Positions 9,399 through 48,494 of a DNA stretch of 64,000 bases are shown here, in pieces. The DNA is from an uncultured bacterium (GTDB lineage Bacteria > Patescibacteriota > Minisyncoccia > UBA6257 > 2-01-FULL-56-20). Made by a program: the position numbers and the translations under genes. Within the stretch, counting starts at the first letter, position 1. Every line of letters starts with the position of its first letter. Where the stretch lies: contig CAVOJZ010000002.1 in assembly GCA_963696395.1 (NCBI GenBank), positions 720,619 through 784,618 of the forward strand. The letters run 5' to 3'. The notes beneath the pieces are model-generated. The model had not been told where the DNA came from. It worked only from the letters and a program-made list of their open reading frames with translations, and made no database searches.

Positions 9399-9604
9399 AT
9401 GCAGTTAATTATAGGGTAGTGCCTGCGCAGCCGCAAGAATTAAGGTGTGGATTGCTCAAGCTCAGTTATTTGAGGCAAGGCTTCATTTTTTTGTCGATAT
9501 TATTTCTAGCAGAACAATTTATCCACAGGCAGTCAAATTTTAGCCATGTATAATGAATTCAGGTAACTCGGCAGTCGAGTTTTGGCAAATATCGCCCCTC
9601 GAGA

Positions 9605-10012
9605 TTGCCGAAAAACCTATGTTTTTTGAACATTATGCCTGAAGTTCCAAAAGAAGGAGCTCATTATATAACTTTAAAAGAAGCCGCAAAAATATCCGGT
9701 TACAGCCCGGACTATTTGGGGCAGTTAATAAGAAAGGGCAAATTGGCTGGTAAGCAGGTTTATCTTAACGTCGCATGGGTCACCACGGAAAAGGCGCTTA
9801 AGTCTTACCTTGAAGAGAATAAAGGAGGGATAAGAAAATCGGATTTTGGGGTAATTTTCCGCGGAAAAATTCGACGATGGCTCGAAGCCCATAGTTCGAG
9901 CGATCAGATCGTCCATTTTGCGAGGCGGGTTATTTATATAGTCATCGCCTTACTTTTCATATTTTGCATGTTTTTGCTCTACGCGATAGCGGTAAATGCA
10001 ATCTGGCGATGA
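9605..10012 (+). CDS. small protein with an HTH-like N-terminus and a C-terminal TM helix; first gene of the long plus-strand block
   Basis: ITLKEAAKISGYSPDYLGQLIRKGKL resembles an HTH. C-terminal hydrophobic helix. Its stop overlaps the next start (ATGA at 10009..10012). The true start may be the internal Met at 9635. Confidence 0.45.
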   Translation: MPKNLCFLNIMPEVPKEGAHYITLKEAAKISGYSPDYLGQLIRKGKLAGKQVYLNVAWVTTEKALKSYLEENKGGIRKSDFGVIFRGKIRRWLEAHSSSDQIVHFARRVIYIVIALLFIFCMFLLYAIAVNAIWR

Positions 10013-12108
10013 AAAAAACCATTATGATTTTCACTGTCATCCTTATCGTCTTTGCGGGTGCGCTCGCAGAGCGGGCTTTTGCAGGCGTTGGCGTTCCCAG
10101 GATCATCAGTTATCAGGGCCGACTCCTGGATTCAAGCGGAAACCTCTTGGGCGGGAGCGGCGCGGCTTATTGTTTTCGTTTTTCGCTTTTTAACGCTTCA
10201 TCCGGGGGTTCGCAGGTCTGGCCCGCGGCCACGGCATCTATCATGACGGCGACTGTGGCAAACGGGGTCTTTAATATCGGCATCGGGGACACAAGCGCCG
10301 GAGGGGACGCATTAACCTACGACTTCCAAAGCAACGACACGATTTATCTCAACGTTCAGGTCGCAACAAAAGTTGATCCGGTGTGTACGGGCGGCAGTGA
10401 AGTCTTCGAGACCCTCTCGCCGCGTGAGCGGGTGGTTGCCGCAGGATACGCAATCAATGCGGCAGCAGTCGATGGGTTCAATGCGGGAACTAATGCTTCC
10501 GGAACTATGATCCCGGTGATTTCATCTGATACGCTGACGCTCGCAGGAGTTAATCCTCAGATCAATGTGACCTCAACGAACACGCTGACGCTCCAAGGGG
10601 GAGCCGGCACCGGCAACATTCAATTTTTTTCGGCGACCAACTTTATTAACAATGCCGGCGCGCTAACGGTGGCGAGCACGGTGACGGGCAGTATGCTTCA
10701 GGCGACGGCGACTTCAAGCCAGTTTGTTTTTCAAGGTATCGCGGCAAGCGGAACCTTGAGCTGGACGCCGACGGTGAAAGGGACGCTCACGATACCGAAT
10801 TTCGCAACTTCAACCGACACGATTGCGCTTGTAAATTTTGCGCAGACATTGAATAACAAAACGCTTGCTTCGCCGATATTAAATTCATCAACGGAAAACA
10901 ATCCGACCCTGGTTTCGGCGACGGCGATTCTTGGCATGACGGTTTTGCAGAATGCGGCTGGCACGGGGCTCACATTGATGCAAAACGCCACGGGAACTGC
11001 GCTCGCGATCACAAACGCGCCGACGTCAACCCAGGTTTCGAGCACGGTCTCGATCACGAACGGTGTGAATGTCACGGGCGCAGCGCTTCTCGTTGCCAAT
11101 TTTGGATCGGGCAACGCCTTGCAGGTAAACGATGCATCATCAACAGTGTTTACAATCGATCAAAACGGCAACCTAAGATTTAATCCTTCAATCGATACAA
11201 GTACGGCTTTTGCAATTCAGAACGCGAGTCAAACCATAACCTTGCTTGCTGCCGATACGCTGAATAATGACATTAAAATCGGTCGGAACGGCGCAGCCGG
11301 AGCAATTCCGACGCTTTTGCGCTTGGACGAAAAAGCCGACGCCGGTGACCCTACCGGTTTCCCGGGGGCGATGTACTACAACTCAAGTACGGCAGAATTC
11401 AGGTGCTATCAGGGGACAGCTTGGTATAACTGCGTCCCGACAAACATGCAGTGGCAACCGGCATATTCGACGGCGCGCATTGGCTACTGGTCGACCTCAG
11501 GTGAAGCGGTGACGACGATGTCGAGTACCAATCTTATTGCGCCGACTATTACTGGCACTGCTGCGGCAAGCGCGCAGGCGGAAGATTACTATGTTCAATG
11601 GACGAGCGCCGCAACGAACGGGTCTGTCGGAGGATTAACACAGACGTTTACGCAGACGCAACCCCGCTATTTGCCGCGGCTTGCGACGAGAATTAGAACC
11701 GACACGGCGATTACGAGCCGGCGCATCTGGATTGCATTGAGCTCCGCGGCGCTGACGGGTTCTGATGGCACAGGCACACTCGCCACCGCCTATTTCGGAC
11801 TCCGCTATTCCACGAACGCAGGCGACACGACCTGGCAATGCGCGTCTGGTGACGGTACGACGGGCAGTGTCTTGAACACGGGAGTAACCGTCACAGTGAG
11901 CACGTACTACGACATTATTCTCGACGCATCAACGCTTGGACAGCTCACGTGTTCGATTGCAACAAATGGCGGTAGCTATGTTTCAGTGACGAAATCGACA
12001 AATATTCCGACGAGTACGACGGCGCTTGGCATCACGGACGCCGTGACGACGCTTACTACGACCGCCGACATCCACAGGGTGGCATACGTCTATCTTGAAA
12101 CTCGATGA
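10009..12108 (+). CDS. large secreted Thr/Ala/Ser-rich surface protein
   Basis: Signal peptide MKKTIMIFTVILIVFAGALAERAFA. 700 aa, beta-rich, low-complexity T/S/A composition. ATGA-overlapped with the flanking genes. Confidence 0.7.
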   Translation: MKKTIMIFTVILIVFAGALAERAFAGVGVPRIISYQGRLLDSSGNLLGGSGAAYCFRFSLFNASSGGSQVWPAATASIMTATVANGVFNIGIGDTSAGGDALTYDFQSNDTIYLNVQVATKVDPVCTGGSEVFETLSPRERVVAAGYAINAAAVDGFNAGTNASGTMIPVISSDTLTLAGVNPQINVTSTNTLTLQGGAGTGNIQFFSATNFINNAGALTVASTVTGSMLQATATSSQFVFQGIAASGTLSWTPTVKGTLTIPNFATSTDTIALVNFAQTLNNKTLASPILNSSTENNPTLVSATAILGMTVLQNAAGTGLTLMQNATGTALAITNAPTSTQVSSTVSITNGVNVTGAALLVANFGSGNALQVNDASSTVFTIDQNGNLRFNPSIDTSTAFAIQNASQTITLLAADTLNNDIKIGRNGAAGAIPTLLRLDEKADAGDPTGFPGAMYYNSSTAEFRCYQGTAWYNCVPTNMQWQPAYSTARIGYWSTSGEAVTTMSSTNLIAPTITGTAAASAQAEDYYVQWTSAATNGSVGGLTQTFTQTQPRYLPRLATRIRTDTAITSRRIWIALSSAALTGSDGTGTLATAYFGLRYSTNAGDTTWQCASGDGTTGSVLNTGVTVTVSTYYDIILDASTLGQLTCSIATNGGSYVSVTKSTNIPTSTTALGITDAVTTLTTTADIHRVAYVYLETR

Positions 12109-13235
12109 AATTACCAATGACCAGCATGAGAGTTAATACATTTCTTCTTGCGGCAACACTTGCCTTCGTTTTTGCGCCTGTGACACGTGCAGCGACGAGT
12201 GCCGTGAATTTTAACGCGGACACCGGCATGCTTTCCGTAACCGGAAGTTGTTCTGGCCGCTACGTTCTCGTGGTCATCAAAAATACTTCAAGCGGAGCTA
12301 TCTGGGGGAGCAGCAACCCGCCGTGTGCGAGCAGCACCTACAACTACACCATGGCAGTTCCGGATGACATCCGCACGGGCGGTGCGTATTCCATAAGCGC
12401 GTTCGATAACGGCGTGTCGAGTTCTTTGGGCAACGGTCCGAGTCAACCCGTTATTCTCGTGCCGTCGCCAAGCATAGGCCAGACCGCACCCGCGGTCATC
12501 GGCAGCTCTTCGATCACGCTCGATACGTCATCGCTTGCGGTTGCACCCGACGATATTTCTTTTGTGGACAGCGTACTGCAAAGCGTCTTCGGCATTGCAA
12601 CGTCGGTGGTTGATACGGTTGAATCCACGGTCGTAGCCGCGGTCCAGGTGTTTGCGAAAATGTTCACCGTTCTGCCCGGGGGATCGATCCGGGTTCCGGA
12701 GGGCCAAAACCAGATTTCAGGACAGGGCATACTCGCGGCCGGTGACTCGGATGTCTTCATTGCGAACACCTCCGTGACATCGTCCTCTGAAATCATCATC
12801 ACCCCGACATCCCCGACGGCAGTTCCGCTCGCCGTCGCACAGATTGTAGATGGCAACGGTTTCCATGTTGACGCGATAAGCCCGCAGCAGATCTCCGTGT
12901 CCTTCTCGTGGCTTATCGTTGGCACGTATGCCACCGGCGCTTCGAGCTCCGTGCAAGCGCAGATGCCGCTTCCGCAGTTGTCCGGCGCGCAAACGATTTC
13001 CCCGGTTATCGGCGCTGTTTCGTCCTCAGATTCCGCTCCGAGCGGAACAGCCAACACGAGCGGAACGGATCTCTCGGGTAGCGCGGATAATTCACCCTCG
13101 GCTTCTATGGGTATCGCAAGCACGACCGATGCAAGTGACACCGTGAATGCCGCAACGACCACCGTATCGAGCGACGATACAACTACAACTACAACTGATG
13201 AAACTTCCACCGATGCAAGTGACACCCCGCAATGA
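12105..13235 (+). CDS. secreted Ser/Thr-rich surface protein
   Basis: Signal peptide ...FLLAATLAFVFAPVTRA. The C-terminus is extremely S/T/D-rich, like an O-glycosylation stalk. Confidence 0.65.
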   Translation: MKLPMTSMRVNTFLLAATLAFVFAPVTRAATSAVNFNADTGMLSVTGSCSGRYVLVVIKNTSSGAIWGSSNPPCASSTYNYTMAVPDDIRTGGAYSISAFDNGVSSSLGNGPSQPVILVPSPSIGQTAPAVIGSSSITLDTSSLAVAPDDISFVDSVLQSVFGIATSVVDTVESTVVAAVQVFAKMFTVLPGGSIRVPEGQNQISGQGILAAGDSDVFIANTSVTSSSEIIITPTSPTAVPLAVAQIVDGNGFHVDAISPQQISVSFSWLIVGTYATGASSSVQAQMPLPQLSGAQTISPVIGAVSSSDSAPSGTANTSGTDLSGSADNSPSASMGIASTTDASDTVNAATTTVSSDDTTTTTTDETSTDASDTPQ

Positions 13236-13262
13236 AAAGGTCGCGAATAATAAATTACTGAC

Positions 13263-13691
13263 ATGCGCGAAACAATTAATTTAGCGGAACAGCACGACGT
13301 ACCACGGCCCCGTCGGGGGAGAATGCTTATCACGGTGATCGTTGTCGTTGCGGTTGTTCTACTTGGATGGTGGTACGTGAATGGCGCAACGCAATGGAAA
13401 GCGGTTTTTCTTACGAACAACCAGGTATACTTTGGACATTTTTGGGATGTTCCGTTTGCCGGGACGATTACCCTCAGGAACGTGTACTATCTCCAATTTT
13501 CAACACCGGGTCAACAACTCGACACTCAGGATCAATCGCAGCTGAAGCTGGTGAAACTTGGAAGTGAGATCCACGGTCCGACCGATGAGATGGTGATCCC
13601 TATATCGCAGGTGCTTTTCTGGGAGACACTCCGCTCCGATAGTGCGATCGTAACGACCATCAAGAATGGGCAGACTCAAACCACTCCATAA
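13263..13691 (+). CDS. small membrane-anchored hypothetical protein
   Basis: N-terminal TM segment (MLITVIVVVAVVLLGWWYV) and a 142-aa frame sitting inside the operon. Confidence 0.5.
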   Translation: MRETINLAEQHDVPRPRRGRMLITVIVVVAVVLLGWWYVNGATQWKAVFLTNNQVYFGHFWDVPFAGTITLRNVYYLQFSTPGQQLDTQDQSQLKLVKLGSEIHGPTDEMVIPISQVLFWETLRSDSAIVTTIKNGQTQTTP

Positions 13692-15015
13692 ATTAATCAT
13701 CGCGGTGCTTTCGGGGGCGTTGGTTGCGGCGCTCGCAATGCCATTGGTTCGCACATTTGCCGATACGGCTTCGAGCACCGATTTTATGATTCAGGATGGG
13801 TTTGTTGGATTTTTTGGCGGCTATGCCTCATCAACCGATTTTCAGGTTGTGAGCGGCGGTGCGCCGATCATCAATTCGAATGCAACCAGCTCGGATTTTA
13901 ATTCGAATACCGGACCTGTGAATTACGGCGATTTTTCCCCGGTATCGCAAACGTGGCGGTGGTACGGCGATCCGAACGATGAAACGCCGACCAGTTCGCT
14001 TGCCGCAGAAAATACGGCGCCGTCGAATATTGCAAACGCCCAAATAATCAAACTACGGCTCAACATAAAGGAAACAAGCGGGATCATGGGAAGCGACAAT
14101 CTCAAGTTCCGGTTGGAGTACGCCGAGTCGTCAGATTTTACGGTCGCGCCCGGTTTTGTCGCCGAGGCGACGGGTTGCGGCGCTACGTCAACCTGGTGCT
14201 ATGCCACGAGCACCGGCGGCAATGATAATCAGATTATCTCGACCGCAATTCTTTCAACAAGCAACCCGTGCAGCGGAGGTGTCGGCAATGGTTGCGGCAC
14301 CCACAACACTTCGGGCATAAGTTCGGCAACGTCAACGCAGAACGCCGGCGCGACAACGGAATATGAATTTACCATCGTCGCATCGGGCGCCGGCAGCGGC
14401 AACACGTATTTCTTCCGTCCGATAAATACCGCAGACGGAAGCGTTGTTCCGCTCGGGGCCACATCGAGTTATCCAAGCCTTGTGACGCAGGGAGCAACAC
14501 TTACCTTTAGCGTGAGCGGTTTGCCACAAAGCACGAGTACGAACGGCGTCACGACAAATGTTTCAACGACGGCAACGGGGATACCATTCGGCACGCTTGC
14601 GCTTGGCACGAGCACGATCGGAGCGCAACGGTTGTACGTTTCAACCAACGCGGCGAACGGATATGAATTGTATACCGAGCAGGATCAACCGCTCATGGAC
14701 TCGCGCGGCGACCTCGTCCCCGGAGTTTTAGGGACCAACGCCAGTCCGCTTCCGTGGGCAAACGCCTGCGCCGCAACTTCGACGGGATGTTATGGCTATC
14801 ACGCCGGCAGTTCGGTGCTTTCAGGCGGTTCAACGCGGTTCGCCGCCGCCGACAGTTACGCCGCGCTCACCTCGACGATCGCCGAAGTCGGCTATAGCGG
14901 ATTTCCTATAACGAGCAGCACGATGGACATGGTCTACCGTGTCCAGGTCGCGGGAACTCAAGTGACCGGAGCGTATCAGGACAATCTCATGTATGTCGTC
15001 GCACCATCATACTGA
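13666..15015 (+). CDS. secreted surface protein carrying the shared C-terminal module (WxL-like)
   Basis: Signal peptide. C-terminal region (GIPFGTLALGT...NGYELYTEQDQ...QDNLMYVVAPSY) aligns with the C-termini of 17150, 18417, 26980 and 33629. Confidence 0.65.
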   Translation: MGRLKPLHKLIIAVLSGALVAALAMPLVRTFADTASSTDFMIQDGFVGFFGGYASSTDFQVVSGGAPIINSNATSSDFNSNTGPVNYGDFSPVSQTWRWYGDPNDETPTSSLAAENTAPSNIANAQIIKLRLNIKETSGIMGSDNLKFRLEYAESSDFTVAPGFVAEATGCGATSTWCYATSTGGNDNQIISTAILSTSNPCSGGVGNGCGTHNTSGISSATSTQNAGATTEYEFTIVASGAGSGNTYFFRPINTADGSVVPLGATSSYPSLVTQGATLTFSVSGLPQSTSTNGVTTNVSTTATGIPFGTLALGTSTIGAQRLYVSTNAANGYELYTEQDQPLMDSRGDLVPGVLGTNASPLPWANACAATSTGCYGYHAGSSVLSGGSTRFAAADSYAALTSTIAEVGYSGFPITSSTMDMVYRVQVAGTQVTGAYQDNLMYVVAPSY

Positions 15016-16007
15016 TGAATAAAAGATTTTTTCATACTATAGCGTTCGTGATGGTTGCGATCGGCCTTGTCGTCCGCGGATTTTTTATGTCCGAGGCGTT
15101 TGCCGCGGATCTCGTGGTCTCGCCGGCGGTGATAGACGGGAACGGCGTGCCCAACGACATTTTGAATTACACCGTTACGGTTGTTAACACAACAGGACAA
15201 CAGCAAAATGTATTTGCCTCGGTCTATGAACTCACGCCAAGCGGAACGCAGCCATTTACCGACCCTTCCGATTCAAATCGGCCGGCGTTGCTCTCCGATT
15301 GGATCAGCGTCACGCGCGGCGCGTTGTTGTTTGCTCCGCACGAGTCAAAGACATTGCCGGTTACCGTACAAATCAATCCATATGCGCTCGCGGGGGATTA
15401 CCACGCCGTCATTGCCTTCGTTGAGGGGGGCACCCGTGATGATGCCGAAACGCATCTTGTTGGTGCGCCGCAAGCCATCGTCAACATGTCCGTTGCATCA
15501 AATCTGGTGGCGAGCCTGAAGATCGACGCATTCGCTACAGCAAAAGGATTTTATTCCGGATTTCCGGTGGACTTTAATTACACAATCGAAAATTCCGGCG
15601 ATGTCGCCGCAACGCCATCGGGCCAGATCATGCTCTACGACCGTCTGGGGCACGAAATCGGTTCTCTTGACGCGAATCCGAACGGGATAAGCATTGCCCC
15701 GGGAGAAAAAAAATCGTTTAGCGCGACATGGTCGAGCGGCAGCGGACTTGGACAATATAAAGCGGTCCTTGATATTTCATACGGAGCGGACAATGATAGA
15801 CTTGAAAACACGGCGATCGTCTGGGTTTTGCCGTGGAAAAAACTCGCGATTATATTCGGCTCGCTCTTCGTTGTTATGATTATTACGGCCCTATGGTTGC
15901 ACCATGAATATGCGAAGCGCCATCATCGCCGCCGCCGCGCGCTCGAAGCCTTGTTAAAAAGGAAAACCATGGAGCCAATTCTCGACCTTCGCCATCCCCA
16001 TGAATAA
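15015..16007 (+). CDS. cell-surface protein with signal peptide plus C-terminal TM anchor (DUF916/CscA-like architecture)
   Basis: Signal peptide and an approximately 250-aa beta-rich ectodomain. A C-terminal TM (LAIIFGSLFVVMIITALWL) is followed by a basic tail (HHEYAKRHHRRRRA). Paralog of 16000, 19610 and 35578. Confidence 0.65.
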   Translation: MNKRFFHTIAFVMVAIGLVVRGFFMSEAFAADLVVSPAVIDGNGVPNDILNYTVTVVNTTGQQQNVFASVYELTPSGTQPFTDPSDSNRPALLSDWISVTRGALLFAPHESKTLPVTVQINPYALAGDYHAVIAFVEGGTRDDAETHLVGAPQAIVNMSVASNLVASLKIDAFATAKGFYSGFPVDFNYTIENSGDVAATPSGQIMLYDRLGHEIGSLDANPNGISIAPGEKKSFSATWSSGSGLGQYKAVLDISYGADNDRLENTAIVWVLPWKKLAIIFGSLFVVMIITALWLHHEYAKRHHRRRRALEALLKRKTMEPILDLRHPHE

Positions 16008-17073
16008 AAAAGTTGCCATCATCTCTCTTGTCTTTGTCTGCTCAGCGCTGCTTTTGCCTGCGGTGTCGTTTGCGCAATCCGCGGATTCAACTTCACTCAC
16101 CATCACGCCGCCGTTTTTCGAATTGAATGTGAGCCCCGGTGATTCGTGGTCGAGTTCGATCAGAGTGGTAAATACCAACGCAACCGATATTCAGGTTCAC
16201 GCGATCGTCATGGGCTTCGCTGCATCCGATGCCGAAGGGCACGGAAACTTTATCCCATTGTCCAATTTGTCGGGGGATAGCGATGCGCTCGCGAACTGGG
16301 TCACCGTTTCACCCTCCCCGATCACTGTGCCCCGGGGTGGTGCAACGGACGTCCCGTTTTCGATTTCGGTTCCATCGGACGCGTCACCCGGAGGCCATTA
16401 TGGCGCGATACTTATCGGAACGGGGGCGCCGACGGTTGCTTCGGGGACGTCGCAGGTCGGCGTGAGCAGCTATATTTCTGCACTGATTTTCGTGAGCGTC
16501 GCGGGCAATATAGTTAATTCGGCGCAAATCACTCAATTTTCAACAGACAAGGGTGCTTATCAGGCGCCGGATGTTCATTTCGCGGTCCGTGTACAAAATG
16601 ACGGCAATGTTCATGTGCGACCGGTTGGGTTCATTCAAATATACAACGCGTTCGGCAAGAAACGAGGTGAAATTCCTATAAATCAGTCGGGTAGTCTCGG
16701 ATATATCCTGCCGTCGAGCACCCGTGAATTCGATGTTGAATGGCAGGGAACGCCGAGTTTGCTTGATATCGGACCTTATACTGCCGTCGTGAGCCTTGCC
16801 TATGGGGAAAACGGCATCGACAGTATCTCGGAAACCGTTGGATTTTGGATTGTGCCAATTTGGCAGATTTTGGAGGTTCTTTTTGTGGCTTTGATCATCT
16901 CACTACTCTTTATATTTATCGTTCGTCGCTCCGTCCGGAAAATGCTTGCAAATGAGATGTCGCGATACGGCGAAATTCCGCCGTCGCAGCCAGAGCAAAA
17001 GAAAGCTTCCGAAAAAAAGAATAATTTATCATCCGGCGGGCACGACTCCGGAACTATCGACTTGAGAAGATAG
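16000..17073 (+). CDS. cell-surface protein, paralog of the anchor family (DUF916-like)
   Basis: Signal peptide. Conserved motif SPGGHYGAILIGTGAP. C-terminal TM (ILEVLFVALIISLLFIFIV) plus basic tail. Confidence 0.7.
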   Translation: MNKKVAIISLVFVCSALLLPAVSFAQSADSTSLTITPPFFELNVSPGDSWSSSIRVVNTNATDIQVHAIVMGFAASDAEGHGNFIPLSNLSGDSDALANWVTVSPSPITVPRGGATDVPFSISVPSDASPGGHYGAILIGTGAPTVASGTSQVGVSSYISALIFVSVAGNIVNSAQITQFSTDKGAYQAPDVHFAVRVQNDGNVHVRPVGFIQIYNAFGKKRGEIPINQSGSLGYILPSSTREFDVEWQGTPSLLDIGPYTAVVSLAYGENGIDSISETVGFWIVPIWQILEVLFVALIISLLFIFIVRRSVRKMLANEMSRYGEIPPSQPEQKKASEKKNNLSSGGHDSGTIDLRR

Positions 17074-17149
17074 GGAGCGATAGGCGATTGTGTATAACTT
17101 GCCGGCATTTTCGCGTTATAATACCTTCAAGAGCGAAATTTTTCTTTGC

Positions 17150-19556: not shown

Positions 19557-19609
19557 AAAGAGGGTCTTGCAGGCGGGTTCATATATGCTAGACTCAATTC
19601 ATAACCACG

Positions 19610-20716: not shown

Positions 20717-20723
20717 TAATTTC

Positions 20724-21095
20724 ATGAGAAAGCGGACGGTTTTGCTTCTCATCATGTTGGCGGGAGTCGCTTGTGTTTTCTTTTTTGTCGCTCGTGGGCG
20801 GGTTGCTTCACTTCCCAGCCTCATGGCGCAAATCGGCATAACGGTTGGCGTGGCACCGAATCCGTACAACACTTTAAACGATCAGCTTAATCAGGAACAG
20901 AATCAGCTGAATCAGCAGGCGGCCGATCTTGCGGCTCGCGAAGCGGCGCTCGCCAGTTCAACGGCCGCCGCCGATGCAGTTTCCTACACCGACTGGTATT
21001 TGAGTGCCGGGATTGCGGCCGTTGCGATTCTTGTTTCCCTGAATTTTTATCTTGATTGGCGGCGCGCCAAGCGGGAAGAAACACCTAAAGTGTAG
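20724..21095 (+). CDS. small membrane protein with a coiled-coil loop
   Basis: Two TM helices flank the loop NDQLNQEQNQLNQQAADLAAREAALAS. Confidence 0.5.
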   Translation: MRKRTVLLLIMLAGVACVFFFVARGRVASLPSLMAQIGITVGVAPNPYNTLNDQLNQEQNQLNQQAADLAAREAALASSTAAADAVSYTDWYLSAGIAAVAILVSLNFYLDWRRAKREETPKV

Positions 21096-21118
21096 TTTTC
21101 ATCATATATAATAGAAGG

Positions 21119-22804: not shown

Positions 22805-22844
22805 TTTGTTATACTGTCTTATATAGAGGTGTCTATGTATTGAT

Positions 22845-26930: not shown

Positions 26931-26979
26931 TTGGGGGCGTTGTATACGTGGTAGAATAATTGGGTAATCATCCGGTTCT

Positions 26980-29517: not shown

Positions 29518-29542
29518 TTATGCATGGTAAAATGAAAGTATT

Positions 29543-31027: not shown

Positions 31028-31028
31028 T

Positions 31029-32339: not shown

Positions 32340-32349
32340 TTTTTATATC

Positions 32350-33555
32350 ATGAGAGCAATTGATGCATTAAAACTTTCGACGAGAATGTTCAAGACGAAT
32401 CCTGCGAGGACCTGGCTTACGATTCTCGGCATGGGCGTCGGCACGTCGGCCGTTGTGATGCTCGTCGGTCTTGGTTTTGGCTTGCAAAACATTCTTCTCG
32501 AGAAAATTGTTTTCGGGGACACCTTGCTCAGCCTCACGGTGACCAATCCGCCCTCGAACGCGGTCACGCTGAACGATGCGACCCTCGCCGAATTCAAAGC
32601 GATACCAAACGTGAACGATGTTTCACCGCTCGCGGATTTTTCTTCCGTTGTGACGTTCAACGGGTTGAGCGCCAACACGGATCTTCAGGGCGTCCAGGCG
32701 TCATATTTTAAATATGCCGGCATCGCGATGGCGGCAGGGAAGTCATTCACAGACAGTCCCGGTGACGGAAACGATATTATTCTTTCGAGCGCCGCACTTC
32801 AGTTATTCGGTGTCACCGACCCGAATCAGATTTTAGGGAAACCGGTATCATTCCGTGTCATCGCGTCGGCGGTTGGAACGTCGGGCTCGGCTGACCAGGT
32901 TCCGTTAAACGGCAATTTTACCGTGACCGGCGTGACGAACGATGCAGCGGCAATTTATGCCATGATTCCGCTTGCGACGCTTTCGTCGCAAGTCGGCATC
33001 ACCTCCTATGATAAGGTTCAGGTCCGCGTATCGGCTAGCGGTTTTTTGAACGACGTGCAAACGGCAATTGTCGCGGCTGGATTCGTTGTTTCTGCACTTT
33101 CAAAGACCGTCGATCAGGCAAATCAAATTTTTAGCGGTGTCCAGGCGGTGCTTGCCGGCTTCGGTGGTATCGCTCTCGTCGTCTCCGCAATCGGTATGTT
33201 TAACACCATGACCGTTACGCTGCTTGAGCGTACAAACGAAATTGGTGTTATGCGCACGCTCGGTGCGTCTCCGCGCGACATCCAGATTCTGTTTTTGTCG
33301 GAAGCGGTTGTTGTGGGATTCCTTGGGGGAATGACTGGCATGGCTATGGGCATCGCCGGAGGTCTCATCATAAATTACCTTCTCAATCTTGTTGCTGCGC
33401 ATTATGGGGGGGCAGCAGTAGCCCTTTTTGCCTTCCCGGGAACGTTTTTGGGGTTTATCACATTCTTTTCCGCAATCGTCGGCTTTATCACAGGAATTTT
33501 CCCTGCTCGCCGCGCGTCATCAATTAGCCCACTTGAGGCCATCCGCTACAAGTAA
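32350..33555 (+). CDS. ABC transporter permease, FtsX/MacB family
   Basis: N-terminal TM, a large periplasmic loop, and a C-terminal FtsX domain with three TM segments (MRTLGASPRDIQILFLSEAVVVGFLGGMTGMAMGIAGG). Start moved to the Met at 32350, after the upstream stop. Confidence 0.8.
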   Translation: MRAIDALKLSTRMFKTNPARTWLTILGMGVGTSAVVMLVGLGFGLQNILLEKIVFGDTLLSLTVTNPPSNAVTLNDATLAEFKAIPNVNDVSPLADFSSVVTFNGLSANTDLQGVQASYFKYAGIAMAAGKSFTDSPGDGNDIILSSAALQLFGVTDPNQILGKPVSFRVIASAVGTSGSADQVPLNGNFTVTGVTNDAAAIYAMIPLATLSSQVGITSYDKVQVRVSASGFLNDVQTAIVAAGFVVSALSKTVDQANQIFSGVQAVLAGFGGIALVVSAIGMFNTMTVTLLERTNEIGVMRTLGASPRDIQILFLSEAVVVGFLGGMTGMAMGIAGGLIINYLLNLVAAHYGGAAVALFAFPGTFLGFITFFSAIVGFITGIFPARRASSISPLEAIRYK

Positions 33556-33628
33556 GCTGGGCTTTGTGGCTCACTTGTGGATAACCGGTCTTTTTCTGGG
33601 GATAGCATAGGGTATAATTATAGTAATT

Positions 33629-35458
33629 ATGAATCCTTTCGGATCACGAGGGAAAGTTGCGGTTTCAATCATTGTTTTTGCGTTTATGGTGGCCGCCGCT
33701 ATTTTGGTTACCACTTTTTGGGGGAGCGATTCGATTCGGCATGCCCGGTTTGCTTTGGCGCAAAGTACGGCAACAACAACCGTAAACATTCTGAATACGC
33801 CGCCGAACTGGACAGAAAATCCGTTTGAGAATCCAGTATCCTCAACTTCGTCGCCTACGAATGCCGGCAATCCTGTCACGTGGTACGCCATCGGCACCGA
33901 TCCTAATAGTGATGCCTATTACCTGCTTCTTTGTAAAAATAGCAGTACGCCGACCGCGGCAAACGGCGCGGCTCCGAGTTGCGCTGGCGGCGCAGGAAAT
34001 CAATGGGCGGTTTCCACTTCAACGGTGAGCGGATCCACCTCAACGGTTTCATACGTCACGTCTTCAACCGATCCTCAGATCGATCCATGGTTTGCATGGA
34101 TCTGCGATGGCAATGCGGGCGGTGCGCAATGTAATGGAACCTACCAGCAAGGCTCAGGCTCTTCCGGATCTCCGTTCGTGGTAAATCATCGGCCGAACTT
34201 TTCAAGTTTTTCAAACAATTCTCCGGCGGTTCCTGGAGCGGTAGTGACATGGTCAACGACTGCGTCCGATACCGATAACTTTACGGGAGCAACCGACACC
34301 GTTCAGCTTTTCGTATGTAAAGCAAACGATTTCACGGGAACGTCCTGCGGTGGCGGAGGAACATTCTGTTCTTCGACGGCGTCGCTGGTGAATCCAAGCT
34401 GCTCGAGTACAATTGCAATTCCTACTCAGGACAAAGGATATTCATCTTACGGCTATGTTATCGACCAGCACCAGTTTGCGGCTTTAGGTGGAGCTGAAGG
34501 AACGAACGCAACCGAAACGGTAAGCGCGGTCGCGCCAACCATCGCTTCTTCGAGTATCAACCTTTTGAATGTCGGAGGTTCAAGCACTCCGCTTACGTTA
34601 ACGAATCCCGGCGGACAAACAACCGGGTTTCAGGTGACATTCACCGCGTCGGACAATAATAGTTGCTTGAATCCGCTTGGTGGCCAGGAAGTTGCAACGG
34701 CGAGCATCGACGTTTTCCGAACCGGGGTCGGTCTTGGAAGCTGTTCGTCAACGGGAAATTATAATGCGAATAATTGTTATCCGGCCGCCGTCGGTACAAC
34801 AACATGGGCTTTTAGCTGTTCGCAGAATGTAGGTTCGTGTTCGGGATCGAGCTCTATAACATCACAATGGACATGCACGTTCCCGCTCTGGTATGTCGCT
34901 GATCCAACGGATGGAACAGCCACAAGCACTCAATACTACAACCAGGCTTGGGCGGCAGCCGTGCAGGCAACGAATTATCTTGGCACCACAAGTACGATAA
35001 CGCAGGGCGCAACCACGAATACCGTCTTGAGTTTCCTTGCGTCACAGCTGAATACGCCGGCGATTAGTTTCGGAGCTTTGCCTCCGGGTTCGACGACTCC
35101 GACGCTTGCCGCCACAACTACGATGTCCGAGCTGGGTAATCTTGGCTTAAACGAGACGTTGTACGGCGTTGATATGTGCCCGACCTATCCTGGTTGCCCG
35201 TCTTCACCGACGTCAACTATTCCGGCTGGATCGATTGCTTATGCAAGCTCGGCTGTTGCATACGCTTTGGGAAACAGCCTGGCCTATAACCCGGGCAACC
35301 TCTTTGCAATCCAGATTCCGAAATCAACCTCAACCGCGACGTCATCGCTTGGCACGACATTCTGGGGACTTTCGGTTCCGGGAACGATCCAATTATCGGG
35401 AGCCTACACCGGCCAGAACACGTTCATCGCAGTCCGCAGCGCGCCGGGCGCATGGTAG
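33629..35458 (+). CDS. secreted Thr/Ser/Gly-rich surface protein with the shared C-terminal module (WxL-like)
   Basis: N-terminal anchor/signal. The C-terminal roughly 140 aa (NTVLSFLASQLNTPAISFGALPPGST...TFWGLSVPG...NTFIAVRSAPGAW) aligns with the C-terminus of 26980. Confidence 0.65.
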   Translation: MNPFGSRGKVAVSIIVFAFMVAAAILVTTFWGSDSIRHARFALAQSTATTTVNILNTPPNWTENPFENPVSSTSSPTNAGNPVTWYAIGTDPNSDAYYLLLCKNSSTPTAANGAAPSCAGGAGNQWAVSTSTVSGSTSTVSYVTSSTDPQIDPWFAWICDGNAGGAQCNGTYQQGSGSSGSPFVVNHRPNFSSFSNNSPAVPGAVVTWSTTASDTDNFTGATDTVQLFVCKANDFTGTSCGGGGTFCSSTASLVNPSCSSTIAIPTQDKGYSSYGYVIDQHQFAALGGAEGTNATETVSAVAPTIASSSINLLNVGGSSTPLTLTNPGGQTTGFQVTFTASDNNSCLNPLGGQEVATASIDVFRTGVGLGSCSSTGNYNANNCYPAAVGTTTWAFSCSQNVGSCSGSSSITSQWTCTFPLWYVADPTDGTATSTQYYNQAWAAAVQATNYLGTTSTITQGATTNTVLSFLASQLNTPAISFGALPPGSTTPTLAATTTMSELGNLGLNETLYGVDMCPTYPGCPSSPTSTIPAGSIAYASSAVAYALGNSLAYNPGNLFAIQIPKSTSTATSSLGTTFWGLSVPGTIQLSGAYTGQNTFIAVRSAPGAW

Positions 35459-35577
35459 TCTTTTATACACGGGATTTCCCCATTACAGAAAAAGCGTGTG
35501 TTTGTGTGGTATTATTACGTGAGGAGTCGGACGGGCTTGGAAGCTGACCCGGTTTTATTTTTTTCGGCGACGTCGCG

Positions 35578-36600
35578 ATGAAAAAAAGCTTTTCTATAAT
35601 TGCAGGGGTGCTCACTGTGACAGGATTTTGGGCAGTGGCGTTGATGCCAGCCTTGCGCGCGCAGGCGGACGGGTTTGGAATTACGCCGCCATACGTGACG
35701 AATGACCAGCTCACGCAAAATTCTGAATATGATCAGACGATTATTTTGGTACGGAGCAATCCGACACAAGACCTTCAAGCGAAGGTCTCTATTAATGTAC
35801 CGGGCGCAAATAACTGGATCACGATAGATCGAGGTACGCAATTCGTGCTTCCCGCAGGGACTCAGCAGGAGCCCATGATTGTGAGCGTGAAAGTTCCGGG
35901 AGATGCAAAGCTCGGAAATTATTCGGGGAATATTCAGGTGGTTGTTTCGCCGCTTGCAGGACCAAGCAAGGGAACGGTAGGCATCACGATCGGCGCTCAG
36001 ATAGATGTGAATCTCCAGGTGATCGATAGCCACAGCGCAAAGCTCGCTGTCCGGCGGGTTATCATGCAAAATACCGAGGTGGGACACACGTGGTGGTGGA
36101 TGCATTTTCCGGGAAAAATCATTTTCTCAATGGATTTGAATAATTCCGGAAATATATCCGGAGCACCTGGTAGGGTGGTGTTCCAATATCAGGTTTATCT
36201 TACGGGGAACACGCTCGAAACCGAACAAAACACGAACGGTCTCGATTCGGTTGCGCCGTTTCAGGCAAAGACCGTAATAGCCGAAATGCCGACGTATTTG
36301 CCGCAAGGCAGTTATAGGGTTTTTTATCAGATTTATGGACCAAACAACACGGATATTATCGGCCAGGGGAATTTGGATCTCGCTGTTTTGCCGGCCGGAA
36401 CGCTTGCGGGATATATAGGATATAATTTCTGGGGACTCCGGTGGAGCGAGAAGCTCATGACCTTTGGTATCATCATCCTTATTCTGCTCGTCCTCTACGG
36501 TATCTATGCGGGCATCCGCCTGTTTATTCGAAAGACTCGGCGGGGCGGGAGAAAAGGCAGGATACCAACGCCGCCCTCACCTCCGAGCCATTATCGTTAG
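35578..36600 (+). CDS. cell-surface protein, fourth paralog of the anchor family (DUF916-like)
   Basis: Signal peptide and beta-rich ectodomain. C-terminal TM (LMTFGIIILILLVLYGIYAGI) and basic tail (RLFIRKTRRGGRKGR). Confidence 0.65.
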   Translation: MKKSFSIIAGVLTVTGFWAVALMPALRAQADGFGITPPYVTNDQLTQNSEYDQTIILVRSNPTQDLQAKVSINVPGANNWITIDRGTQFVLPAGTQQEPMIVSVKVPGDAKLGNYSGNIQVVVSPLAGPSKGTVGITIGAQIDVNLQVIDSHSAKLAVRRVIMQNTEVGHTWWWMHFPGKIIFSMDLNNSGNISGAPGRVVFQYQVYLTGNTLETEQNTNGLDSVAPFQAKTVIAEMPTYLPQGSYRVFYQIYGPNNTDIIGQGNLDLAVLPAGTLAGYIGYNFWGLRWSEKLMTFGIIILILLVLYGIYAGIRLFIRKTRRGGRKGRIPTPPSPPSHYR

Positions 36601-36629
36601 GTGCCTGTTGTAAATAAAAAAGACGAATC

Positions 36630-37760
36630 ATGTTGAGCGGCTTTAAGAAGCTTTTGGTTTTATTATGCTTTGCGGTAATTTGCACACTTTTCACTGTGCC
36701 TTTTGCACGCGCCCAGTTTACAGCTTCAACAACAGTCAATATCAGCGTCTGCGGCAACGGCATCGTGGAGCCACCGCTTGAGGTTTGTGATGATGGCGTG
36801 AACAACGGGCAATACGCAACGTCTGCGGCCGGCCGAAATTGCTTGCCCGATTGCAGCGGCTGGGGACCATACTGCGGCGACGGAATTCTGCAGCCTTTGT
36901 TCGGTGAACAGTGTGATGACGGTAATAATATTTCCGGTGACGGATGTTCTGCAACATGTCAAATTGAGTCACTCCAACAAACCGGAGGCGGCGGAGGCGG
37001 CGGGGGAGGCGGGGGAATTTCCGGCGGCACATTTACGGAACCGAACCCCACCGAAGTGATCATTAAAGGGAAGGCATATCCTGGCTCGAGCGTAAGTATT
37101 CTCGACGACGGTACAACGATCGGCGTTGTCCAGGCGGATACCAGCGCCAATTTCTATTTTTCAACGACTAACATTTCTCCGGGCGTCGCAACGTTCGGAT
37201 TTTGGGCACAGGATTCGCAAGGCCTAAAATCAATCGCCCTCACGACCACGGTGACCATAACCGCCAACGCGGCGACAACGATCTCGGGAGAGTTCTTGCC
37301 GCCGACGATTGCGATTGATAAGCGCCAAATAGCGAAAGGTAATATTCTTACAATCTCCGGGCAATCGGTGCCGTCGGCAACCGTCGAGACCTATATCCAT
37401 TCCGGAAACCAAATTATGCTTGCGACGAGCACTGATGCAAGCGGCAATTGGAAGATCCTTTTCGACACAAAGCCGCTCGATAACAACCAGCTCCATACCG
37501 TGGATGCGGATTTTGTAACCACCGACAACGGCGCCGTGGCGCGCAGCGAAATAAGCCAATCGCTGTCGTTTTTTGTCGGTTCAGGCAGTGCCGGGAAAAG
37601 CTATCTCGCCGACCTGAACGGCGACGGCAAGGTGAATCTCGCCGATTTTTCCATATTGCTCTATTATTGGGGCACAAGCACCCCGCTTGCCGACCTCAAT
37701 GGCGACGGTAAGGTGGATTTGCAAGACCTGAGCATATTGCTGTATTACTGGACCGGCTGA
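36630..37760 (+). CDS. secreted protein with Myxococcus-type Cys-rich repeats, Ig-like domains and a C-terminal tandem dockerin
   Basis: Signal peptide. Cys repeats ([20 protein letters not shown]...[29 protein letters not shown]). Poly-Gly linker. Dockerin pair [22 protein letters not shown]...[20 protein letters not shown]. Confidence 0.75.
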
Positions 37761-37844
37761 TAATCCAGACTTGAAACTTTTCGGACCGCTCGTACGTATG
37801 TACTGATGCGGCAGAGCTCGTTTTATGATTAGGGTCGATGCCGT

Positions 37845-38705
37845 ATGAAAAAAAACTATATAACTCTTATGAACAAAAATATCGCTATACTTTTGACAGC
37901 AGTGGGATTTGTTGCGAGTTTTGCGGTGGTTGCCCCGGTATTCGCGCAAACGCAGGCTCAGGGACATCTTAATATACCGAACGGTATGAATTTCCGCTTC
38001 GGGATGCATGGCGGTCTCACGAACGGATTTATGCCGGGCGTGTTTGGTACGGTGAGTGCCATTAATGGTACGACGCTTACCGTGACAAGCAAGGTGAGGC
38101 CGAATGCAACAACAACGTCACCGATGGTGTATACCATTGATGCGAGCAATGCAACGGTAATGAAGAATGGCACCAGCTCCAGCATCTCAAGCGTCGCTAC
38201 GGGGGACATGGTCATGGTGCAGGGTACGGTGAGTGGATCAAACGTCACGGCGACGATGATCCGGGACGGCGTCGGTATGACGGGCAGGGGCGGTTTCAGC
38301 TTTCCGGGAAGGGCAACTTCAACGGCAACAAACGCTACGCCACCTATCCAGGGCAACGGTGAGCCCGTAATCGGAGGCAGCGTGACCGCGATTAACGGAT
38401 CGACACTGACTGTAACGAACGCAAGTAATGTCACCTATACGATTGATGTATCAAATGCAAAGATCGTAAAGAACGGCGTGACGTCAACGGTCTCGGCTGT
38501 CGCGACTGGCGACAATGTTATCGTGCAGGGCACGGTAAACGGCACGTCTGTAGTTGCGTCGTCCGTTATTGATCAAGTCAAGACGGGTGGTAATGGAAAC
38601 GGAACGCCGAACACAGCTCTTCCAGCCAACGCCTCGCCGACCCGCATCAATTTCGGATTCTTGGGATCCATCGGGAGTTTCTTCAAGCGCATTTTCGGCT
38701 TCTAG
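37845..38705 (+). CDS. secreted protein with two internal repeats of about 75 aa (DUF5666-like)
   Basis: Signal peptide. Repeat 1 (TVSAINGTTLTVTSK...YTIDASNATVMKNG..SSISSVATGDMVMVQGTVSGSNVTA) aligns with repeat 2 (SVTAINGSTLTVTNASNVTYTIDVSNAKIVKNG.TSTVSAVATGDNVIVQGTVNGTSVVA). Confidence 0.6.
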   Translation: MKKNYITLMNKNIAILLTAVGFVASFAVVAPVFAQTQAQGHLNIPNGMNFRFGMHGGLTNGFMPGVFGTVSAINGTTLTVTSKVRPNATTTSPMVYTIDASNATVMKNGTSSSISSVATGDMVMVQGTVSGSNVTATMIRDGVGMTGRGGFSFPGRATSTATNATPPIQGNGEPVIGGSVTAINGSTLTVTNASNVTYTIDVSNAKIVKNGVTSTVSAVATGDNVIVQGTVNGTSVVASSVIDQVKTGGNGNGTPNTALPANASPTRINFGFLGSIGSFFKRIFGF

Positions 38706-38719
38706 AAACAAAATAAAAA

Positions 38720-38766
38720 CCGCCGTCCCCGCGCGTGAGGCGCCGCCGGACGGCGGTTTTTTTATT
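38720..38766 (+). terminator. rho-independent terminator ending the long plus-strand block
   Basis: Perfect 9-bp stem CCGCCGTCC...GGACGGCGG followed by TTTTTTTATTTT. Confidence 0.8.
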
Positions 38767-38814
38767 TTAAGAGAAGTGTGGGCGGGGAAATGGCAATCGA
38801 TTCCGTATAGTATA

Positions 38815-39450
38815 ATGAATGAAACAATGACATATAAAACACTGATAACCAGGGAGTGGGTGAGATCATTTCTCGTTGCCCTGATTCTCTTGGGGCTCGC
38901 GATTGTGTTCCAGTTTTATGCATCCAACTATTCGAGCCGCGTTTCGAGTAATTTTGTGCACGATATCCTTCTCGACAACCTTCCAATCGTTAATTTGAAT
39001 CTTATCATCATCGAAGGAGCGCTCGCAGCCATTGTCGTGAGCATCATCCTCTTGCTCTATAAACCCGAATATATCGTATTCACTATTAAAGCGGTTGCCA
39101 TATTTATAGCGACAAGAGCTGTCTTTGTCGCTTCGACTCATCTTGGTATTTATCCCGGACAGATTAATCCCGATACGGGTTTTTTTGATCGCATCTATAC
39201 CGGACTTGGCCTTGAGGCCGGGTTTTTCTTTTCAGGGCACACAGGATTGCCATTTCTCATGGCGCTGATTTTCTGGGACGAGAAAATATGGCGTTATTGC
39301 TACCTTGCCATCTCGATTATTTTTGGCATATCGGTGCTGTTTGCCCACGTGCATTACACGATAGACGTCCTCGCCGCCCCGTATATGACCTATTCAATTT
39401 ATAAGCTATCCCAATACTTTTTTGCCGAAGATTTTAAAGCATTGCCTTAG
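38815..39450 (+). CDS. PAP2-superfamily integral membrane protein (lipid phosphatase/phosphotransferase-like)
   Basis: Multi-TM protein with PAP2 motifs SGHTG and HVHYTIDV (H...D). Start set at MNETMTYK, which is preceded by TATAAT. The upstream part of the frame overlaps the previous gene. Confidence 0.6.
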   Translation: MNETMTYKTLITREWVRSFLVALILLGLAIVFQFYASNYSSRVSSNFVHDILLDNLPIVNLNLIIIEGALAAIVVSIILLLYKPEYIVFTIKAVAIFIATRAVFVASTHLGIYPGQINPDTGFFDRIYTGLGLEAGFFFSGHTGLPFLMALIFWDEKIWRYCYLAISIIFGISVLFAHVHYTIDVLAAPYMTYSIYKLSQYFFAEDFKALP

Positions 39451-48493: not shown

Positions 48494-48494
48494 G

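Follow-up and report, generated by a model that had tools for sequence, protein, structure and literature searches.

What does a bacterium with a genome of ~0.9 Mb build on its surface with a run of two dozen genes, all on one strand and nearly all encoding exported proteins? The run, called here the block, occupies positions 9605-39450 of the window, the 64,000-nt stretch of contig CAVOJZ010000002.1 that was analyzed (g07, one of its genes, lies on a 913,682-bp contig), and belongs to a member of the Paceibacteria, within the Candidate Phyla Radiation (CPR, or Patescibacteria). To our knowledge, the way in which CPR bacteria recognize their hosts is largely obscure, and only type IV pili have been experimentally tied to attachment, in Saccharibacteria. 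We read the block, with moderate confidence, as a conserved chromosomal supercluster of surface proteins with a role in display, in which a variant of the WxL/Csc system of Gram-positive bacteria is joined to a module of docking proteins and a MacB-type transporter, the whole being transcribed in multiple units.

The block consists of two adjoining modules, g04-g12 (module 1) and g13/g14-g22 (module 2), both conserved across the class. The original prediction had left it to comparative genomics whether the block is syntenic in relatives or an accessory island; it is syntenic, and at least six further genomes of Paceibacteria, with identities as low as 38%, share its gene order. Among the relatives' loci compared (L002, L005, L006, and L008-L012), the entire order from u2, a cohesin gene upstream of the block, through g22 is kept on the 881,652-bp chromosome that carries both L002 and L008 (68-89% identity). 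L005 (~55%) keeps g05-g15, plus the apparent start of a g16-sized gene at the edge of the locus; L006 (~39%) keeps only g04-g12, followed by unrelated genes; and L009-L012 (63-38%, one of them a Nomurabacteria metagenome-assembled genome) keep g14/g16-g22, with a u2-like cohesin gene directly after g22. Module 1 is found in L002, L005, and L006 (68-39%) and module 2 in L008-L012 (77-38%); the two stand side by side in the L002/L008 genome and in L005, and apart elsewhere (e.g., L006 and L012). The variable parts are g01-g03 at the 5' end and g23 and g24 at the 3' end. Homologs come exclusively from CPR/Patescibacteria: Minisyncoccia, Paceibacterota, and, at greater distance, Saccharimonadia and Levyibacteriota. 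A look-up of the exact g09 sequence returned no record, and it was g07 that led to the source.

The block had been likened to the csc surface-complex clusters of Gram-positive bacteria, with their DUF916 anchors and WxL proteins, and had been credited with several paralog families. These families are real, both by BLASTP and by profile alignment (hhalign). Family A comprises g06, g07, g10, and g21, and family B comprises g05, g08, and g09; the other sets are the dockerin pair g12/g22, the cohesin pair g14/u2 (BLASTP 6.5e-13), and g16 and g20, which have a C-terminal domain of ~270 aa in common (BLASTP 1e-21). Within family A, g06 matches g07 and g10 at ~1e-25 and g10 matches g07 at 2.8e-63; all four members carry C-terminal hydrophobic segments. 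PF06030 (DUF916/WxLIP_PGBD) matches two of the window proteins, g07 at 24.2 bits and g10 at 19.6 bits, both below the cutoff of 27.3, and 32 of 49 family-A members at E<=0.01, with a best E of 1.9e-10. The AlphaFold2 (AF2) model of g07 (predicted local distance difference test, pLDDT, 89) has a signal helix, two beta-sandwich domains, the second an immunoglobulin (Ig)-like domain at residues 175-284, and a long C-terminal transmembrane (TM) helix at 287-322. In a Foldseek search with this model, the top three PDB matches were Enterococcus faecium WxLIP1 (9i25_C, 9i1y; E 4e-11 to 2e-10), 9i25_C being entitled WxLIP1 'bound to long WxL'. The same protein is the best PDB sequence match of the family-A profile (E 9e-4), and both alignments to EfmWxLIP1 extend across both domains (profile, 43-266 versus 22-245; Foldseek, 270 columns). 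Thus g06, g07, g10, and g21 are true remote homologs of the DUF916-type WxLIP proteins of Firmicutes, if not canonical members of that family. What had been proposed as an analogy is raised to homology for the anchors, and is unproven for their WxL partners.

For the supposed WxL partners, the comparison is not supported: family B, which occupies the place of the WxL proteins, matches no WxL model, be it Pfam PF13731, NCBIfam, or PDB sequences. Family B is entirely unannotated and large: a word-indexed search gave >923 matches, and an exhaustive one (E<=1e-3) gave 2,098 clusters at 50% identity; g05, its divergent member, matches the family-B profile at 98.6% (hhalign, E 1e-15). PF13731 matched none of 39 family-B members at E<=1 and no domain-only query at E<=10, nor did Pfam searches to E 10 or searches of NCBIfam and PDB with the family-B profile and g05 give an informative match. 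As references we used authentic WxL clusters from Enterococcus, Bacillus, Lactiplantibacillus, and Lactococcus plasmids, collected with the WxLIP1 sequence as bait; all 120 further Firmicute WxL proteins listed as controls carry PF13731. The full-length family-B profile aligned with that of the real WxL proteins gave nothing in hhalign. Restricted to the domains, the alignment reached a score of 22.1 (P 0.018, probability 2.5%), which is sub-significant; none of 200 column shuffles reached this score (mean 10.7, sd 1.9, max 16.7) and the reversed control scored 13.3; deeper profiles gave 19.1 (P 0.08) in an unchanged register. This alignment places 'l.FG ... VtTNA.NGF.VTV.edQ' of family B on 'l.FG ... 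VtD.RG..GW.L.V.q..qf' of WxL, and a relaxed threshold adds a C-terminal 'dYtn.L.YVATP' on 'Y.ttLtW.L..tP', so that the motifs are collinear. We regard this profile likeness as suggestive only. The second Trp is not invariant even in Bacillota, since a small 'WxL domain-containing protein' of Bacillus cereus bv. anthracis plasmid pCI-XO1 (L019, 4154-4759) has LTYSI in place of LTWxL at motif 2. The AF2 model of g09 (pLDDT 84), an N-terminal helix followed by two beta-sandwich domains, retrieved in Foldseek just BslA and generic adhesins with two Ig domains; its top 50 matches do not include the WxL chain of 9i25. We also tried g16 and g20 as family-B or WxL proteins, without significance despite their C-terminal motif 'IP..I..sG.YTGqNTFigv'.

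The contextual evidence for a parallel between family B and WxL proteins is stronger than the profile likeness. Among the 150 best representatives, the family-B match extends to the C-terminal end of almost every full-length protein, and the long variants (457-1022 aa) carry LamG, LVIVD, Flg_new (Listeria-Bacteroides repeat), or Y_Y_Y domains N-terminal to it. In a Saccharimonadia locus, two family-B genes (hhalign 96% and 92%) stand beside one DUF916-like gene. WxL clusters have been defined as at least one WxLIP and at least two WxL proteins within four genes (PMC10599100), and the Saccharimonadia locus follows this rule of one WxLIP and two partners. Family B holds the positional role of the WxL proteins, though it is not demonstrably WxL. 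A metagenomic protein of 666 aa (P0253) joins a complete WxLIP-like part, with PF06030 above the cutoff, to a complete family-B protein; the joint is the family-B signal peptide, and the protein may have arisen by natural fusion or by read-through from one gene into its neighbor.

Family B is also more conserved than its neighbors: g09 is 81-82% identical to the L002 copies, versus 68% for g07, and a strand at the mature N-terminus is highly conserved. The mature parts of g08 and g09 are ~97% identical in DNA (17296-18290 versus 18563-19557), while the DNA upstream has diverged and the signal-peptide regions share 58% of their residues. L002 also has two family-B copies, 91% identical to each other versus 83-85% to those of the window, and we therefore conclude that g08 and g09 have undergone concerted evolution; the pattern points to gene conversion limited to the mature part.

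Module 2 holds the second set of surface proteins. The cohesin, dockerin, MacB_PCD/FtsX, and DUF916-type domains that had been called in the block were all found with Pfam (cutoffs of 24.1 bits for Cohesin and 22.9 bits for Dockerin_1). The dockerins of g12 and g22 have two Ca-binding loops each, D.N.D[GN].[VI]...D, and each scaffold protein, g14 and u2, has one cohesin; g14 is laid out as signal peptide, cohesin, DUF7743, Big_13, TM segment, and cytoplasmic coiled-coil tail. No block product ends in an LPXTG sorting signal, g04 and g11 being TM-anchored instead; g11 resembles CscD in size and position, but lacks LPXTG. Together, g18 and g19 form a separate ABC ATPase and MacB_PCD/FtsX permease, i.e., a MacB-type transporter, and no MacA/HlyD adaptor or outer-membrane channel domain was found by Pfam in the block or its flanks. 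The permease g19 is the best conserved gene of module 2, and g22 its final conserved gene. In g18 (~436 aa), ABC_tran covers residues 37-183 of the 445-aa open reading frame (ORF) as scanned, leaving a helical, charged C-terminal extension of ~200 aa with no domain match, which is kept at full length in relatives (47-87%). Both cohesin genes, u2 and g14, directly adjoin a gene of the HSP20 family, with ATGA coupling between g13 and g14; both pairings are kept in L002, and the g13-g14 pairing in L005 too.

The extent of the run can be given precisely. All long gene-like ORFs between 9605 and 39450 are indeed on the plus strand; they number 24 rather than the ~28 proposed, with start codons adjusted by signal-peptide position and upstream context. 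In the rest of the window the strand switches at 13 of 25 junctions, so a same-strand run of this length is beyond chance (0.48^23 or ~5e-8 for 23 successive non-switches). The overlaps named in the original prediction all exist (ATGA at 10009, 12105, and 23408, TGATG at 15015, and 8 nt at 16000), and there is another at 25176 (11 nt) and probably one at 13666 (26 nt). To call such junctions pervasive was an overstatement, however: six of 23 overlap (seven with the g05 start at 13666) and another three are separated by <=10 nt, which makes nine of 23 at <=10 nt, whereas gaps of 23-130 nt separate the other 14. The first ORF does encode a small helix-turn-helix (HTH)-like protein, by an HTH_17 match of 26.7 bits against a cutoff of 27; it is a candidate membrane-tethered regulator. 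A parallel with RwpL, an HTH protein that regulates WxL genes in Lactiplantibacillus plantarum, was weighed and rejected: RwpL is of the MarR type and acts genome-wide. The closing terminator is real and strong (AAAAACCGCCGTCC...GGACGGCGGTTTTTTT, -31.9 kcal/mol), but it lies between g23 and g24, 684 nt short of the proposed end of the block, and the co-transcribable run therefore ends at 38705. Beyond it, g24 has its own TATAAT and is not conserved with the block, to which it does not belong. Of the claim that nearly all products are exported, most holds, as 20 of 24 have an N-terminal hydrophobic segment (signal or anchor); g13 (HSP20) and g18 (ABC ATPase) are cytoplasmic, g01 has a C-terminal TM segment only, and g19 and g24 are multipass proteins. 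The surface-protein region starts before the block, at 5278, with u1 and u2 on the plus strand; they belong to the same neighborhood, although a minus-strand HSP20 gene (8928..9398) parts them from the block. Ten of the 24 products have no match in Pfam or NCBIfam.

Promoter signals appear in the block only with -10 or extended -10 patterns, a simple sigma-70 scan for two hexamers giving no excess (19 versus 12.9; 12 versus 14.4). Intergenic DNA makes up 1,106 nt of the 30 kb (3.7%), yet it holds all three matches to TGNTANAAT, five of six to TGNTANA[AC]T, and five of nine to TATAAT. Boxes of these types precede g01, g08, g09, g10, g12, g13, g16, g17, g20, and g24; those before g10, g12, g13, g16, and g17 are conserved in position in relatives at 50-80% protein identity, where the gap sequence around them has diverged. 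Boxes often lie only 6-12 nt from the start codon (g12 21107, g17 29525, g20 33613, g24 38811), and no Shine-Dalgarno sequence is visible before most block starts, a pattern which suggests that mRNAs of this CPR genome are leaderless or have very short leaders. In the gap between g20 and g21, a hairpin and U-run lie within ~15 nt of the TGGTATTAT box, as they also do in L008 (11804-11921); the element has no Rfam family and could be a terminator of g20 or a leader or attenuator of g21. The gap between g08 and g09 (18287-18416) contains two TGTTGACAAC repeats, two copies of AATGGAAAT[AC]GG, and an 8-bp hairpin GGAAATCG/CGATTTCC immediately before an A-rich leader, and is a possible regulatory site.

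Table 1. Features of the surface-protein region and its borders (positions in the window)
Feature	Position	Strand	Evidence and remarks
u1, large secreted protein	5278..7878	+	Big_7 x4, fn3 x3, Big_13, PG_binding_1 (Pfam); N-terminal hydrophobic segment
u2, cohesin protein, signal peptide and C-terminal TM anchor	7872..8858	+	Cohesin 24.1 bits, equal to cutoff
HSP20 gene, upstream limit of co-directional run	8928..9398	-	HSP20 60.3 bits; L002 ortholog 78%
TATAAT, candidate promoter of first unit, in 236-nt gap before g01	9549..9554	+	Box scan
g01, small HTH_17 protein, C-terminal TM helix	9635..10012	+	L002 ortholog 65%
g02, 699-aa secreted protein, no known domain	10009..12108	+	ATGA overlap with g01
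g03, 376-aa secreted Ser/Thr-rich protein	12105..13235	+	ATGA overlap with g02
g04, small N-terminally anchored protein, opens module 1	13263..13691	+	L002 71%
g05, secreted protein of family B, diverged from its paralogs g08/g09	13666..15015	+	Orthologs in L002, L005, L006
g06, WxLIP-like: signal peptide, two Ig-like domains, C-terminal TM	15015..16007	+	TGATG overlap with g05
g07, WxLIP-like protein	16000..17073	+	8-nt overlap with g06; PF06030; AF2, Foldseek
TATAAT, 27 nt before g08 start	17117..17122	+	Box scan
g08, family-B protein, tandem copy 1	17150..18286	+	BLASTP, self-comparison
Extended -10 box TGATACAAT in 130-nt g08-g09 gap	18358..18366	+	Box scan
g09, family-B protein, tandem copy 2	18417..19553	+	N-terminal helix and two beta-sandwich domains
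Extended -10-like box TGCTAGACT before g10, kept in L002	19586..19594	+	Box scan
g10, WxLIP-like, C-terminal TM segment(s)	19610..20716	+	Weak PF06030 and fn3_5 matches
g11, 123 aa, signal peptide, C-terminal TM and charged tail	20724..21095	+	Conserved in L002, L005, L006
TATAAT 6 nt before g12 GTG start, kept in L002	21107..21112	+	Leaderless or very short leader (putative)
g12, secreted, Big domains, C-terminal dockerin, last gene of module 1	21119..22804	+	Dockerin_1 23.6 bits
Extended -10-like box TGTTATACT before g13, kept in L002, L005	22807..22815	+	Box scan
g13, cytoplasmic HSP20-family protein	22845..23411	+	HSP20 33.8 bits; no hydrophobic segment; in L002, L005
g14, membrane-anchored cohesin scaffold	23408..25186	+	Cohesin 39.8 bits; conserved in 6 loci
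g15, N-terminally anchored, low-complexity Ser/Thr/Pro-rich	25176..26930	+	11-nt overlap with g14
Extended -10 box TGGTAGAAT before g16, kept in L008	26949..26957	+	Box scan
g16, 845-aa secreted lectin-type protein	26980..29517	+	DUF2341, Laminin_G_3
Extended -10 box TGGTAAAAT, 9 nt before g17 ATG	29525..29533	+	TGnTAnAAT kept in L008, L009, L010
g17, secreted or anchored, repeated fn3-type domains	29543..31027	+	Pfam
g18, ABC ATPase, ~200-aa C-terminal extension	31029..32339	+	ABC_tran 108 bits
g19, MacB-type permease, multiple TM segments	32350..33555	+	MacB_PCD 68.1 and FtsX 54.9 bits
TATAAT 10 nt before g20 ATG	33613..33618	+	Box scan
g20, 609-aa Cys-rich secreted protein, no known domain	33629..35458	+	C-terminal domain common to g16
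g20-g21 gap: TGGTATTAT box, then hairpin and U-run	35459..35577	+	Both also in L008
g21, fourth and most divergent WxLIP-like paralog, C-terminal TM	35578..36600	+	BLASTP to g06 4e-5
g22, secreted DUF4215, Big_6, dockerin protein, g12 paralog	36630..37760	+	Dockerin_1 34.7 bits
g23, secreted DUF5666-repeat protein	37845..38705	+	Not conserved at this position in relatives
Strong bidirectional intrinsic terminator	38720..38766	.	10-bp G+C stem between A-run and T-run
g24, multipass PAP2_C-family membrane protein	38827..39450	+	Own TATAAT (38811); outside surface module

Some of these genes have further features of their own. The pair g02 and g03 (10009-13235) corresponds to a single 925-aa gene in the closest relative, L002 (4392-7169), and its middle part is highly variable. 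The equivalents of g04 have 146 aa in L006 and 153 aa in L002, and g12 is similar over its first 50 residues to domain 1 of g08/g09. Outside the block, a GGDEF+EAL protein (turnover of cyclic di-GMP) is encoded 6 kb downstream, at 45766-47358, and further large secreted proteins at 48402-54599.

One or a few very long mRNAs had been proposed for the block, which would then be a csc-like co-regulated operon, read over 29 kb, with its promoter ahead of the HTH gene and the sole terminator at its end. The co-direction of all genes, the overlapping and closely spaced junctions, and the presence of only one strong intrinsic terminator, with terminator-like sites inside the block at chance level (23 versus 20.3; 20 versus 20.1), are what such an operon would leave. 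They are countered by the 14 wider gaps, by the concentration of -10 boxes in the intergenic DNA, with boxes in at least nine gaps and conserved ones among them, by the hairpin and U-run after g20 both here and in L008, and by the occurrence of the modules apart from each other (L006, L012), and we consider the single operon unlikely. Because the -10 boxes are concentrated in the gaps and several are conserved, we argue instead for many internal promoters: transcription of the block would probably proceed in ~10-12 short units that each start from an extended -10 promoter and have little or no leader, with translational coupling predicted inside units (g01-g03, g04-g07, g10-g11, g13-g15, g17-g19). 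Read-through between units is possible, given that the only strong terminator is followed in strength by the weaker candidate after g20. The idea that the block is an accessory or horizontally acquired island fares worse. Its GC content is slightly above that of the flanks (0.524 versus 0.505) and its 3' end, g23 and g24, is not conserved; however, a comparison of GC and tetranucleotides with the flanks, which the original prediction had called for, finds a matching composition, the tetranucleotide profile being indistinguishable (correlation 0.938 between block and flanks, versus 0.947 between the two flank halves). The window scan found no tRNAs, integrase, or boundary repeats at the block, and Rfam no RNA family in the window. 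With the gene order kept in relatives and a composition like that of the flanks, the island is essentially refuted, and the block is syntenic core DNA.

Two other explanations concern what the proteins do. In one, the WxLIP-like proteins would be membrane-tethered chaperones of the chaperone-usher type that stabilize family-B subunits and pass them on by strand complementation, the subunits polymerizing into a fiber, a sheath, or an S-layer-like coat instead of being displayed singly. After WxLIP, the next Foldseek matches of g07 are the chaperones of chaperone-usher pili, CsuC, CfaA, and Caf1M (E 1e-9 to 1e-7, TM-score 0.5-0.6 on the target); the conservation, duplication, concerted evolution, and own promoter-like boxes of family B would suit an abundant structural subunit, and its conserved N-terminal strand and its fold, like that of two-domain adhesins and BslA, fit as well. 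Moreover, published AF2 work predicts the insertion of a WxLIP beta-hairpin into WxL (PMC10599100). But the block has no usher-like pore or polymerase and shows no sign of polymerization, the likeness to chaperones may be that of a generic two-Ig-domain shape (TM-score on the query 0.33-0.39), and the WxLIP of Firmicutes is regarded as a stable anchor rather than a transient chaperone; we hold the fiber to be decidedly unlikely. The other explanation is a complex for polysaccharide utilization, cellulosome-like or as first proposed for Csc in L. plantarum, in which cohesin-dockerin pairs and lectins would collect and degrade glycans. It can draw on the cohesin and dockerin modules, on the Laminin_G_3 (concanavalin-like lectin/glucanase superfamily) and DUF2341 domains of g16, and on the carbohydrate utilization originally proposed for Csc clusters (PMC1534035). 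Yet Pfam and NCBIfam revealed in the 24 products no glycoside hydrolase, polysaccharide lyase, carbohydrate esterase, carbohydrate-binding module, or sugar transporter domain, and a cellulosome-like role is therefore unlikely; the dockerin proteins carry Ig-like domains only. Non-cellulosomal cohesin-dockerin pairs are common, which also counts against a polysaccharide complex, and we deem this explanation very improbable.

We therefore return to the reading of the block as a surface-display supercluster. Module 1, with three WxLIP homologs interleaved with three family-B proteins, one dockerin protein, and a pair of small anchored proteins, is proposed to be the CPR version of the Gram-positive WxL/Csc system; from the homology of the anchors and the similar layout of the partners, the following steps can be suggested. 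After Sec export, the WxLIP-like anchors would capture family-B proteins non-covalently at the cell surface and, in some genomes, also larger proteins with a C-terminal family-B module. Module 2 would provide a second, independent docking, in which the TM-anchored cohesins g14 and u2 bind the dockerin proteins g12 and g22; it also includes the lectin-type g16, the fn3 protein g17, the Cys-rich g20, a fourth WxLIP-like anchor (g21), and the MacB-type pair g18/g19, which would most likely provide ATP-driven mechanical work or export for assembly. Overall, attachment to host cells or particles is the likely role, and would fit the epibiotic lifestyle of CPR bacteria.

The WxL/Csc clusters of Bacillota consist of a WxLIP with DUF916, DUF3324, and a TM helix, small and large WxL proteins, and often an LPXTG protein (PMC1534035, PMC9772566, PMC10599100). 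In Firmicutes they serve the non-covalent display of adhesins on the wall, and the WxLIP is thought to bind and stabilize WxL (PMC9772566, PMC10599100); a WxL protein of L. plantarum mediates aggregation and fibronectin binding (PMC13522541). The block agrees with them in its homologous WxLIP-type anchors, with signal peptide, two Ig-like domains, and C-terminal TM segment, and in that these adjoin at least two secreted partners with a conserved C-terminal module, some small and others large, the latter with adhesin or lectin domains at the N-terminus. Also common to both are small anchored proteins in the cluster, co-directional genes, and faintly collinear partner motifs. In contrast, the partners fail PF13731 and the other WxL tests, with Trp-x-Leu replaced by F-x-V and Y-V-A, and have an extra N-terminal beta-sandwich domain; the block has no LPXTG protein or sortase, and its anchors no detected PF11797; four WxLIP paralogs occur in one locus, joined to cohesin-dockerin and MacB modules; and the host belongs to the CPR, whereas Firmicutes account for >91% of the WxL proteins known. 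In the literature we found nothing that links WxL or WxLIP to CPR or Saccharibacteria, nor Parcubacteria with dockerin. UniRef, however, already gives one Saccharimonadia homolog an automatic name that begins with 'DUF9'.

Like known non-cellulosomal cohesin-dockerin systems, the block has type-I-like dockerins with two Ca-binding loops, cohesins on membrane-anchored proteins, and matched numbers, two of each; it differs in having no enzyme cargo, its dockerin proteins carrying Ig-like or DUF4215 domains only, and it differs from multi-cohesin scaffoldins in that its scaffolds are TM proteins with a single cohesin. With the type VII transporters (MacAB-TolC, LolCDE, FtsEX) it shares a separate ATPase and permease, the latter with the MacB periplasmic core and FtsX TM segments. 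Unlike MacAB-TolC, it has no MacA/HlyD adaptor or outer-membrane partner, and its ATPase has the conserved ~200-aa C-terminal extension. The pair g18/g19 is not FtsEX either, since in L006 another pair, of ABC ATPase and FtsX_ECD permease, is encoded separately downstream of module 1. With the chaperones of chaperone-usher systems the likeness is in the two-Ig-domain fold of g07, which differs from them in being membrane-anchored, with no usher, no sequence similarity, and a host that is probably monoderm.

Several points weigh against the display supercluster as we have drawn it. The interaction, localization, and expression of the block proteins are predicted from sequence only. No hidden Markov model match to PF11797 (DUF3324/WxLIP_HBD), the second domain of WxLIP, was found in any of the 49 family-A members. 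As no WxL model is matched, 'WxL-like partner' denotes position, architecture, and a weak profile signal. The -10 boxes are candidates that lie in AT-rich gaps (40% GC), where chance hexamers are likelier. The HSP20 protein g13 is without an obvious place in a surface complex, and the MacB pair could serve an unrelated function, linked to the rest by synteny alone.

A wider claim can be made, which we offer tentatively and which, taken jointly, we would sooner doubt than accept. WxL/WxLIP display would be ancient and shared by Bacillota and CPR, with presence in both Paceibacteria and Saccharimonadia. The WxLIP anchor would have been retained in CPR, while the ligand domain became unrecognizable as it diverged into the unannotated C-terminal module of the ~2,100 clusters, with Trp-x-Leu becoming F-x-V and Y-V-A. 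Paceibacteria would have expanded this core into a 30-kb locus by the addition of cohesin-dockerin pairs and a MacB motor, and the locus would encode the main surface by which these epibionts attach to hosts, possibly through a chaperone-like strand insertion related to chaperone-usher assembly.

There is no new kind of biology here, and the functional steps are all ones that we infer. The promoter pattern, with extended -10 boxes a few nucleotides before starts and no visible Shine-Dalgarno sequence, is useful in the annotation of CPR genomes. The context of family B gives a testable role to >2,000 clusters of 'hypothetical protein', and the WxLIP family would extend well outside Bacillota. 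The locus offers a concrete, widely conserved, and testable set of candidate attachment proteins of CPR bacteria, linked by homology to WxLIP/WxL, a Gram-positive system with solved structures and adhesion phenotypes.

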